The notes below the pieces were generated by a model. It was not told where the DNA came from. It searched no databases and saw only the letters and a list, made by a program, of their open reading frames with translations. Positions 1,798 through 3,750 of a stretch of 64,000 bases of DNA are shown here, piece by piece. A program made the position numbers and the translations under genes. Positions within the stretch are counted from its first letter, which is position 1, and each line of letters opens with the position of its first letter. Source of the stretch: Escherichia coli (GTDB taxonomy: Bacteria; Pseudomonadota; Gammaproteobacteria; Enterobacterales; Enterobacteriaceae); NCBI RefSeq assembly GCF_003790525.1, contig NZ_CP033635.1, one strand, 5' to 3'.

Positions 1798-3750
1798 TCA
1801 GACTATTGTGGCCCACCGCAGTCGTAGCTTCATCCCCCAGGAACTGGTCCAGCCGCTGGTTGTGGAGATTACCCGCCCCTTCGATATCACTACGAACGTC
1901 GGGGTTACTCTAATTCTCCATAAACGGGATATTGTGCCATCAGCATCATTGATCACCGGGAACCTGTTCCTCCTGAGAGCCAGCTTCCGGCTCACCTCAT
2001 CAGATGAGCCGGAACGGTATGCAATCGTCATCACATTCTCTCCCCTGGCAGATAAAGCCGCCACCTCCGCGCAGTGCAACAACATCCGCCTCCTGCAGCG
2101 ACTTCTGCACATTGTCTTTTTGCAGCACATTGTATTTATTGAATTTACAGGTAACACACCAGTCTGCAGTCACATCGATAAATACCCGCTTATGCTGAGC
2201 CAGCGCCTCCTTAATCGCCTGTTCACTGAGAGGCTGCCAGACAACCTGTTCTTTCGTTGTACTGTGTGAGGATACTCCCAAGTGTGGCAGTAACAGTGTT
2301 GTCAGCCAGAAGGCAGAACCCAGCATCATCAGGCCAAGCACCCGACGCAAAATATTCATCCATCCTCCCGGATGGGGCAAACACAACGCAAGCCCGGGTC
2401 GCAACGCCACCAACAGCCACGGAAGACTCATTCCCACGCCCAGTGCAAAGAAAATCCCCCACAGAGTGGGTAGTGATGCCGTCAGCGCCACTGCCACTGC
2501 CGTACCGAGGAAGGGGGCGCTACACGGTGTCGCCAGAAGAGTCGCAAAAGCGCCCTGCCAGAAATGTCCGGACATTCCATTACCACCAAATGTCGCCAGA
2601 CGAGTCATGAGGCCGGAAGGCAGGCGGAACTCAAACAGGCCAAACAGACTGGCACTAAAAATCAGCATAACCAGCGTCATCAGAACAATAAACCAGGGAC
2701 TCTGATACTGGATCCCCCACCCCAGAGCCCGGTTTGTCAGCCGCAGAAGGGTCATTAACGTAGCCAGAGCCATAAAGGAAGTAAGGATCCCGGCTACAGA
2801 CATCAGAAACTGACATCGAATCTGCTGACGGTTTTTCTCTTCCACCAGTAAAACTGAGCCCAGCTTCATCCCCAGAACCGGTAATACACAGGGCATCAGG
2901 TTAAGAATGAGTCCACCAGCTAATGCCATCAGAGTGACCTGCCAAAGAGGTAAGACATTCTCTGCTATTTTGGTTGCACCTGCCGCAACCGTAAGCGTAC
3001 TTTCCTGAGCGAGGCCGCCGCTTTCAATAACCAGTGTGACTTGTTGGCCAGTCAGGTCCGGCGCCCCCTCTCCCCAGTTGTCCGTGACCGGCACAGATGC
3101 GAGCAGATTCTTGCCGTCAATCTGCATCTGCGGCTTACCGAAGCTTGCATAATCAACAGAATCCAGATAAATATCCGGAGATGACCAGCCGTCTGCCCGT
3201 ATTGCGGTAATGAGCAGTCCACCAGGTCGGTAAACCGCGTTTAAGGAATCCGCTACCCCATGGGAAAGCGGAATTTTCCCCATGGCCTGTGCGTAATCAT
3301 GTGCAAATGTTGTATCCTGTGTGGAAACATTCACAGTGAAAGGGTAATCGGTCAGCAGACAGACATTGCTGCAGACAGGCAGGGTCAGTACGCCAGTGAT
3401 CCTCTCAGGTGATATACCACGTAACACCACGGGAAACGTGACTGTGTTGTGATATCCCGTAGTGGTAATGCCGGCCACGTCAAAACGTGAAGGCCAGGCC
3501 AGTACCACTCCACTTCCGGTGTTTCACTTTTCCAGTCGACTGACGGTGCAATCCCCCCTTATCCGGGTGAGCGCCAGTAAGTTTTCCAGCCGTTATCCAG
3601 TTTAACGTCCAGCAAAACACGTGTTTCCCCGGAGACCACGGAATCAGCACGTATCCGTATACTGGCATGCTCATTCTCAGGAGAACGCAACCAGCCACTT
3701 TCGGTAGCCCAGGATACAGGCAGCCAGAACAATAACAGACAGAGAAGCAT
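1798..3750 (-). pseudogene. scsB: DsbD/ScsB-family thiol:disulfide interchange protein, disrupted (in-frame TAA at 3559-3561, -1 frameshift near 3500, further frameshift near 2040)
   Basis: N-terminal piece ...DNGWKTYWRSPG then stop; remainder continues in other frames (PSRFDVAGITTTGYH..., multi-TM core, C-terminal DWCVTCK thioredoxin-like motif). ORFs 3559..3780, 2000..3508 and 1798..2157 are pieces of one gene. Confidence 0.55.

Follow-up and report, generated by a model that had tools for sequence, protein, structure and literature searches.

A 64,000-nucleotide (nt) stretch of Escherichia coli DNA (assembly GCF_003790525.1, contig NZ_CP033635.1), referred to below as the window, was examined for a decayed thiol-disulfide reductase locus on its minus strand. 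Positions 1798-3787 are very probably all that is left, in non-functional form, of an scsABCD operon acquired by horizontal transfer and carried on a genomic island, and within this remnant lies what we read as the scar of a lost IS629 insertion sequence (IS). ScsB is known to pass electrons from cytoplasmic thioredoxin to periplasmic ScsC and contributes to copper-stress protection of envelope proteins; recent work indicates that it also reduces the membrane-anchored ScsD (PMC10907172; bioRxiv 10.64898/2026.05.22.727170). A first-pass annotation of the window had described a copper-stress or disulfide-reductase locus undergoing reductive decay within an island, next to an IS66 element. This description proved correct in outline, but three of its details did not hold (the second frameshift, the absence of scsD and the insertion of IS66), and the IS629 history of the scsB/scsD junction had not been noticed.

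This locus was found in only one of 5,426 complete E. coli genomes (LH50-c), where it is 99.9% identical to that of the window and also decayed. Since this sole complete-genome copy is not intact, intact alleles were found via the protein cluster. Two E. coli loci, L004 and L005, each show 99.6% DNA identity to the window scsB (for L004 over its positions 7994-9715) and share the gene order nicO, DUF1007, DUF302, scsA, scsB, scsC, scsD, followed by a dctPQM TRAP transporter that is also found at the start of the window. A second intact reference, L002 (97.8% DNA identity), carries scsA, scsB, scsC and scsD consecutively, and the Salmonella scs locus was included as L023. Codons of scsB are numbered after the 630-amino-acid (aa) intact allele, and junction alleles were typed by diagnostic k-mers on fetched contigs. 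Alignment to intact scs loci, a comparison which the first-pass annotation had proposed as a check, allowed each lesion to be placed.

The decayed ScsB-type reductase gene spans positions 2070-3780. A protein search returned thousands of ScsB-type proteins of 626-630 aa, and the window protein shares 70% identity with Salmonella ScsB and 97-100% with the intact E. coli alleles. One of these alleles, P0127, is equal to the three scsB frame pieces of the window up to the deletion junction, lesion sites excepted; its residues 27-268 match the alpha domain of Proteus ScsB (PDB 6c29, E = 2.2e-66). Among Pfam models, the two halves of DsbD_N are split over the first two open reading frames (ORFs), 3559-3780 and 2000-3508. 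The second of these, of 502 aa, matches DsbD_TM (PF02683, E = 7.7e-24, profile positions 2-216 of 219) and, partially, Thioredoxin_7 (profile positions 2-57 of 83 only). A signal peptide and the motifs CSNVC (3359-3373) and CVTC (2147-2158) are encoded as well. The earlier description of a DsbD/ScsB-like gene with signal peptide, WKTYWRSPG, a multi-transmembrane (TM) core and CVTC therefore stands. The ScsB-type alpha domain, with tandem immunoglobulin (Ig)-like folds and CX3C, is present and is split by the stop codon and the frameshift; the DsbD-type transmembrane core is present too. The C-terminal thioredoxin-like motif CVTC was confirmed, but the gamma domain to which it belongs is truncated by the loss of the last 59 codons, not merely frameshifted. 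No uninterrupted frame with translation signals remains. NCBIfam, which holds no Scs-specific models and so does not decide the family, gave only sub-threshold DsbD matches and none for the short fragments. The gene is a pseudogene derived from a member of the ScsB subgroup of the DsbD family and not from dsbD.

Base-by-base comparison of scsB with L004 revealed an ATG to GTG change of the start codon, an A to C change four bases upstream, a GAA to TAA change at codon 74 (3559-3561) and, in codon 96, a missing T between positions 3496 and 3495; the only other differences are two substitutions. Both the stop codon and the frameshift near 3500 had been recognized in the first-pass annotation. 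The Shine-Dalgarno sequence GGAG and everything upstream of it are gone at the IS66 boundary. In comparison with L002, 20 non-synonymous and 15 synonymous codon differences were counted; the count is crude and mixes two lineages, and it hints at relaxed constraint. A 9-bp tandem duplication (AATTATGTT twice, 3760-3777, minus strand) was considered as a further lesion and rejected, as intact 630-aa alleles carry it. The duplication adds NYV after codon 4. As some intact alleles have it (630 aa) and others do not (627 aa), it is a harmless length polymorphism in the n-region of the signal peptide.

The 3′ end of scsB has been removed by a deletion that reaches into scsD. BLAST alignment of the window to L002 placed 3768-2067 on scsB (6004-7706) and 2069-1481 on scsD (8729-9317). 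Alignment to L004 placed 3787-2067 on 7994-9715 (scsB) and 2069-1 on 10738-12806 (scsD from codon 79 on, plus downstream sequence). The scsB sequence ends at 2070 (...GCACTGCG) and the scsD sequence begins at 2069 (CGGAGGTGG...); in intact loci the corresponding sites read GCACTGCGTGG followed by TGACTGG... in scsB and ...ACCA followed by CTCCGGAGG in scsD. The missing 1,025 bp correspond to L004 9713-10737 and comprise the last 59 codons of scsB, the whole of scsC and codons 1-79 of scsD, leaving the two stumps fused out of frame. The translation of 1798-2067 matches L004 ScsD over residues 80-168 with 100% identity; no Pfam model matched the 119-aa ORF that contains it (1798-2157), and its scsD identity comes only from alignment to intact loci. 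The membrane anchor of ScsD, a TlpA/DsbE-like reductase, and its WCGVC active site (residues 70-74) lie within the deleted stretch. That no scsC or scsD partner follows scsB, as had been stated, is right for scsC and wrong for scsD, of which the 3′ remnant is present. PGAP agrees independently, with two separate pseudogenes annotated in the LH50-c locus: first one of the DsbD family, "missing C-terminus", and after it a "protein disulfide oxidoreductase", "missing N-terminus".

Exactly at this scsB/scsD junction LH50-c carries a 1,310-bp IS3-family element (GCACTGCGTGG-IS-CTCCGGAGG), and five other samples do likewise. Over its whole length the element shares 96% identity with elements that carry the annotation IS629. 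The TGG and CTC that flank it are native scsB and scsD bases, and no target duplication surrounds it at the LH50-c junction; IS629 therefore marks the 1-kb deletion. The window corresponds to the IS629-bearing form minus TGG, the IS and CTC (1,316 bp), which agrees with the observed length difference. Otherwise identical sister sequences thus hold the IS at a site where the window is empty and short of 3 bp on each side.

Three junction alleles were distinguished. The first, with IS629 present, occurs in L001 and L008-L012. The second is that of the window (GCACTGCG joined to CGGAGG) and is shared by L003 and L013-L022; its 502-aa product (P0121) occurs in 77 index blocks. The third, in L006 and L007, reads GCACT joined to CCGGAGG; the join runs through a microhomology of 4 bp, CACT, to which the IS contributes two bases, its terminal CA. 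The truncated ORF accordingly has C-terminal variants of 496 aa (with an IS629-derived end), 502 aa (window type) and 491 aa. Every copy spanning the sites concerned carries the TAA, the 1-bp deletion and the junction with IS66, and the copies differ only at the scsB/scsD junction; L003 starts within scsB and shows this last junction only. The IS629-bearing allele keeps native bases missing from both empty alleles, and each empty allele keeps some that the other has lost. For this reason we infer with good support that the IS629-bearing allele is ancestral and that the window junction is an imprecise excision scar. In the simplest history, the ancestor carried IS629, and the IS was then lost imprecisely on two independent occasions. 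A derivation of the third junction from the window type by CG slippage was considered and rejected: it reads GCACT joined to CCGGAGG, and the retention of native bases differs in both directions.

Another order of events would be that the 1,025 bp were deleted without any IS, for example by replication slippage, so that the window junction came first and IS629 inserted later in the LH50-c lineage. The window-type junction is indeed far commoner in public data (77 index blocks vs. about 10 contigs), and IS629 is abundant in E. coli, being found in 3,042 of 5,426 genomes. However, the IS629 allele keeps six native nucleotides (TGG and CTC) which an insertion cannot restore and which would be matched by chance in about 1 of 4,096 cases; the IS stands at the junction without a target duplication; and the third junction, at a distance of 2-6 bp, is most simply explained if the one IS-bearing ancestor underwent a second excision. 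We consider this order of events very unlikely.

Several points weigh against the reading given here. The window junction shows no strict microhomology (GCG joined to CGG, at best an imperfect T/CGG) and so does not by itself resemble a textbook join mediated by microhomology. Neither an iee gene nor a copy of IS629 was found within the 64-kb window. No allele was recovered in which the TAA and the frameshift stand alongside an intact scsB 3′ end, scsC and scsD, and the original 1,019-bp deletion could have come about by recombination between two IS629 copies or as an IS-adjacent deletion. The third junction is carried only by two Logan contigs from neighboring run accessions. We hold it slightly better than an even chance that the three alleles form a natural series, in which an IS629-occupied ancestor gave rise to two independent and differing imprecise-excision scars at one site, one with a 4-bp microhomology and one with none. 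It is speculative that the losses were driven by the IS629 transposase together with the IS-excision enhancer (IEE). If the series is true, it would provide footprints, at the level of populations, of the excision of IS3-family elements beyond the classical O157 setting, and many "clean" small deletions in E. coli pseudogenes would be hidden IS-excision scars.

The other end of the remnant is set by an IS66-family element with the gene set tnpA-tnpB-tnpC (called by PGAP and Pfam on identical copies) and terminal inverted repeats (GTAAGCG... at 6542 and ...CGCTTAC at 3788); an inverted-repeat search for the ends gave nothing useful. The terminal repeat reaches 3788, 7 bp from the scsB GTG at 3780. 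The insertion of IS66 38 bp upstream of the gene, as first annotated, could not be upheld, the figure having been counted from the tnpC stop. IS66-family elements produce 8-bp target duplications. None is present here, the flanks GACTAAAT and GAACAATG being different. The body of the element corresponds to L004 1970-4406, and the same right end in L004 sits 3,587 bp further upstream, before nicO. The intervening L004 4407-7993 (3,587 bp; nicO, DUF1007, DUF302, scsA and the scsB ribosome-binding site) is missing from the window. Because a target duplication is lacking and 3,587 bp are gone beside the element, the boundary is that of an IS66-adjacent deletion or of a recombination between two IS66 copies, and not of a simple insertion. 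With an in-frame TAG in tnpC, the IS66 beside scsB is itself defective and probably immobile unless complemented by another copy.

Further traces of IS66 were observed around this boundary. An IS66-end-like motif (GTAAGCGTAAAGCC, 6580-6593, minus strand) lies 38-51 bp outside the left end at 6542 and may be the stump of another copy. Positions 1-4406 of L004 hold two abutting IS66-family copies: a 94%-related one that ends at about 1972, and then the window-type copy without its left 320 bp. This arrangement suggests repeated IS66 activity in this region of the island. In L013 (SRR19215684, positions 1004-2691) most of the scsB-adjacent IS66 is missing, and an M20 peptidase gene stands beside a 100-aa tnpC stump. 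The window homolog of this peptidase is at 10869-12140, and the L013 deletion has taken out the module of TonB-dependent receptor and DUF4198 genes described below.

No Scs function can remain in the window. The ribosome-binding site of scsB is lost, its frame is stopped early and then shifted, and its thioredoxin fold is incomplete; scsA and scsC are missing, and scsD is left without its active site. One might suppose that expression of the 502-aa ORF persists and that its product, a truncated membrane thiol-disulfide protein, serves some residual or new function. It is identical across many genomes (P0121), and CSNVC, both transmembrane cysteines and CVTC are kept. Yet this frame arose by accident, through the 1-bp deletion, and has no signal peptide. 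It has inherited no promoter or Shine-Dalgarno context, since IS66 abuts the original start; its thioredoxin fold is cut after about two thirds (the ...VAVPYNQVYGP... stretch is lost); and both periplasmic partners are gone. Identity among the copies reflects recent common descent, and further lesions in other strains are consistent with an absence of purifying selection. A function of this kind is very unlikely. Among these lesions of the same dead scsB, P0130 lacks 6 bp, in frame, of a GCAGTG repeat (AVAVAL to AVAL), and the start of P0135 in another frame implies that a further frameshift lies near the MGKIPLSHG region. Together with the loss of most of IS66 in L013, they are consistent with neutral decay.

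The first-pass annotation had read 1798-3750 as one ScsB protein. On such a reading 1798-3780 would be a single scsB with a nonsense codon and two frameshifts, near 3500 and near 2040, no scsD remnant would be present and IS66 would simply have inserted. The TAA and the first frameshift are real, and the frame does change at about 2040-2070. What lies there, however, is the 1,025-bp deletion junction at 2069/2070 in place of a frameshift: scsB homology stops at 2070 and jumps into scsD. The last ~270 bp belong to scsD, and the translation of 1798-2067 is not significantly similar to ScsB (E = 0.19). Intact ScsB proteins do not end in this sequence; their C-terminus (DWTLPSD...KGVTP) is missing from the window, and IS66 has no target duplication and 3.6 kb missing beside it. 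The segments belong to separate genes, the very outcome that the annotation had named as refuting its reading, and a single scsB is extremely unlikely. Least credible of all, to the point of being practically discounted, is that the lesions are sequencing or assembly artefacts (homopolymer errors, IS collapse) in a locus intact in the cell. Assemblies do commonly contain false single-base indels, and IS elements often come out mis-assembled. However, the TAA, the 1-bp deletion and the IS66 and scsB/scsD junctions are found again in over 20 independent assemblies and metagenomes of various sources and technologies, one closed genome among them, so that the TAA and the 1-bp deletion are not sequencing errors; the lost T lies outside any long homopolymer (CCTGTGCC), and the absence of six native bases at the junction is not expected from collapse. 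Coordinates of the features are collected in Table 1.

Table 1. Features of the decayed scs locus and the adjoining IS66 element (window positions).
Feature	Position	Strand	Remarks
scsB 5′ fragment	3559..3780	minus	73 aa; GTG start, signal peptide, first part of alpha domain with WKTYWRSPG; ends at TAA 3559-3561
Rest of scsB	2070..3558	minus	remainder of alpha domain, 8-TM DsbD core, partial thioredoxin-like gamma domain; to second base of codon 571
Three ORFs tiling the feature	3559-3780 (73 aa), 2000-3508 (502 aa), 1798-2157 (119 aa)	minus	from ORF list
Native scsB leader remnant	3781..3787	minus	last 7 bp, GAACAAT (intact allele: GAAAAAT)
1-bp deletion site	3495..3496	minus	T lost, CCTGTGCC to CCTGGCC; -1 frameshift in codon 96
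Out-of-frame read-through tail of 502-aa ORF	2000..2069	minus	GGGFICQGRECDDDCIPFRLI, then stop; scsD sequence in wrong frame
Deletion junction	2064..2077, break between 2070 and 2069	minus	GCACTGCG joined to CGGAGG; read as scar of lost IS629
scsD 3′ remnant	1798..2069 (272 bp)	minus	two bases of codon 79, codons 80-168, stop
IS66-family element	3788..6542	minus	from BLAST coverage vs. plasmid IS66 copies and reading of the ends; GTAAGCGCCC... and ...GCCGCTTAC
IS66 tnpA	5786-6460	minus	PGAP annotation in LH50-c locus
IS66 tnpB	5442-5789	minus	PGAP annotation in LH50-c locus
IS66 tnpC	3818-5422	minus	in-frame TAG 4463-4465; PGAP "internal stop" in LH50-c

The sequence comparisons show that a 3,587-bp deletion abutting the right end of a resident IS66 took nicO, DUF1007, DUF302, scsA, the promoter and the scsB Shine-Dalgarno sequence. 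Further decay of scsB comprises the change of the start codon to GTG, the stop at codon 74 and the 1-bp deletion in codon 96, with no temporal order implied. For the scsB/scsD junction a history can be proposed. The 1,025-bp loss of the scsB end, scsC and the scsD start would have been made at the IS629 copy that still stands at the junction in sister genomes. The window lineage would later have lost IS629 imprecisely, along with 3 bp from each side, and a second, independent loss would have produced the other junction through the CACT microhomology. On this account the annotation should give two pseudogenes (scsB and scsD) with a deletion junction between them in place of one frameshifted gene, and the strain should be regarded as Scs-negative. 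For genome decay in general, the case would illustrate that IS elements can erase operons and then vanish. The leftover junction resembles a spontaneous deletion or frameshift unless an IS-bearing sister genome is at hand.

The surroundings of the remnant are of similar character. A fragment of an IS110-family transposase (about 1014-1286, minus strand) lies between the scsD remnant and the TRAP gene dctP; the latter begins near 800 and continues beyond position 1 of the window. The fragment is also found downstream of intact scsD in L004 and L005 and therefore predates the decay of scs. Beyond IS66, genes for a TonB-dependent receptor (6707-9487, minus strand) and a DUF4198 protein (9734-10486, minus strand) appear intact and are followed by an IS3-type integrase-core ORF. 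A tyrosine integrase gene (19517-20710, minus strand) marks the island boundary, and the core genes lptG, lptF, pepA and valS adjoin from 20962 onward. Since ARAGORN predicts no tRNA in any part of the window, integration did not obviously take place at a tRNA gene. Overall the island is built as a mosaic in which IS fragments stand between the cargo modules.

The intact island alleles (L002, L004 and L005) have the same scsA-scsB-scsC-scsD order as the suppressor of copper sensitivity (scs) operon of Salmonella enterica, and their proteins are 54% (ScsA), 70% (ScsB), 73% (ScsC) and 62% (ScsD) identical to those of Salmonella. Unlike in Salmonella, the island locus lies between the nicO/DUF302 genes and the TRAP transporter. 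The neighbors of the Salmonella locus are DnaJ-family and MerR-type genes upstream and a histidine-phosphatase gene and yccJ downstream. We take the named neighbors to be cbpA, cbpM and agp, with the locus between cbpA and agp. In the window, unlike in the Salmonella operon, scsA and scsC are absent, scsB is multiply damaged and only the last 89 codons of scsD are left. In the intact alleles ScsB has the architecture known from Salmonella scs: CX3C stands in an alpha domain of the tandem-Ig type, CXXC in a thioredoxin-like gamma domain, and the core between them has 8 TM segments (PMC10907172). An E. coli strain has already been listed among the carriers of scs in a review (PMC10907172). E. 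coli DsbD shares the DsbD_TM core and the C-terminal thioredoxin-like domain, and weak matches to PRK00293 and to DsbD gamma structures were obtained. In contrast to DsbD, the score is 110-112 bits vs. a family cut-off of 330, and the N-domain is of the ScsB-alpha type (6c29) and not the single-Ig DsbD-alpha type.

The decay is ordinary pseudogenization by known mechanisms: the scs system, deletions associated with IS66 and IS629, and the excision of IS629 have all been described already. The only modest point is the three-allele series, which would document repeated imprecise loss of IS629 from one site. Excision of IS629 dependent on IEE and transposase has been reported in enterohaemorrhagic E. 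coli (Kusumoto et al., 2011, as related in PMC9943667 and PMC9397093). In such excision, flanking deletions measure between a few nt and over 40 kb, and microhomology-mediated end joining is an activity of IEE (PMC9943667). The present case is similar in the IS concerned, the loss of few flanking nt, one junction with a 4-bp microhomology and repeated independent losses at one site. It differs in that the window carries no iee gene and that a clean microhomology is lacking at its junction, and a role of IEE here is speculative. It has also been shown that loss of ISApl1 from Tn6330 leaves scars joined via 2-4 bp microhomologies (bioRxiv 10.1101/2023.06.07.543989). Unlike ISApl1, which belongs to the IS30 family, the element considered here is of the IS3 family, and it sat in a dead operon with no compound transposon or passenger gene. 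As with the scars of ISApl1/Tn6330 (mcr-1), identical backbones occur either with the IS or with small variable deletion joints at its old position.

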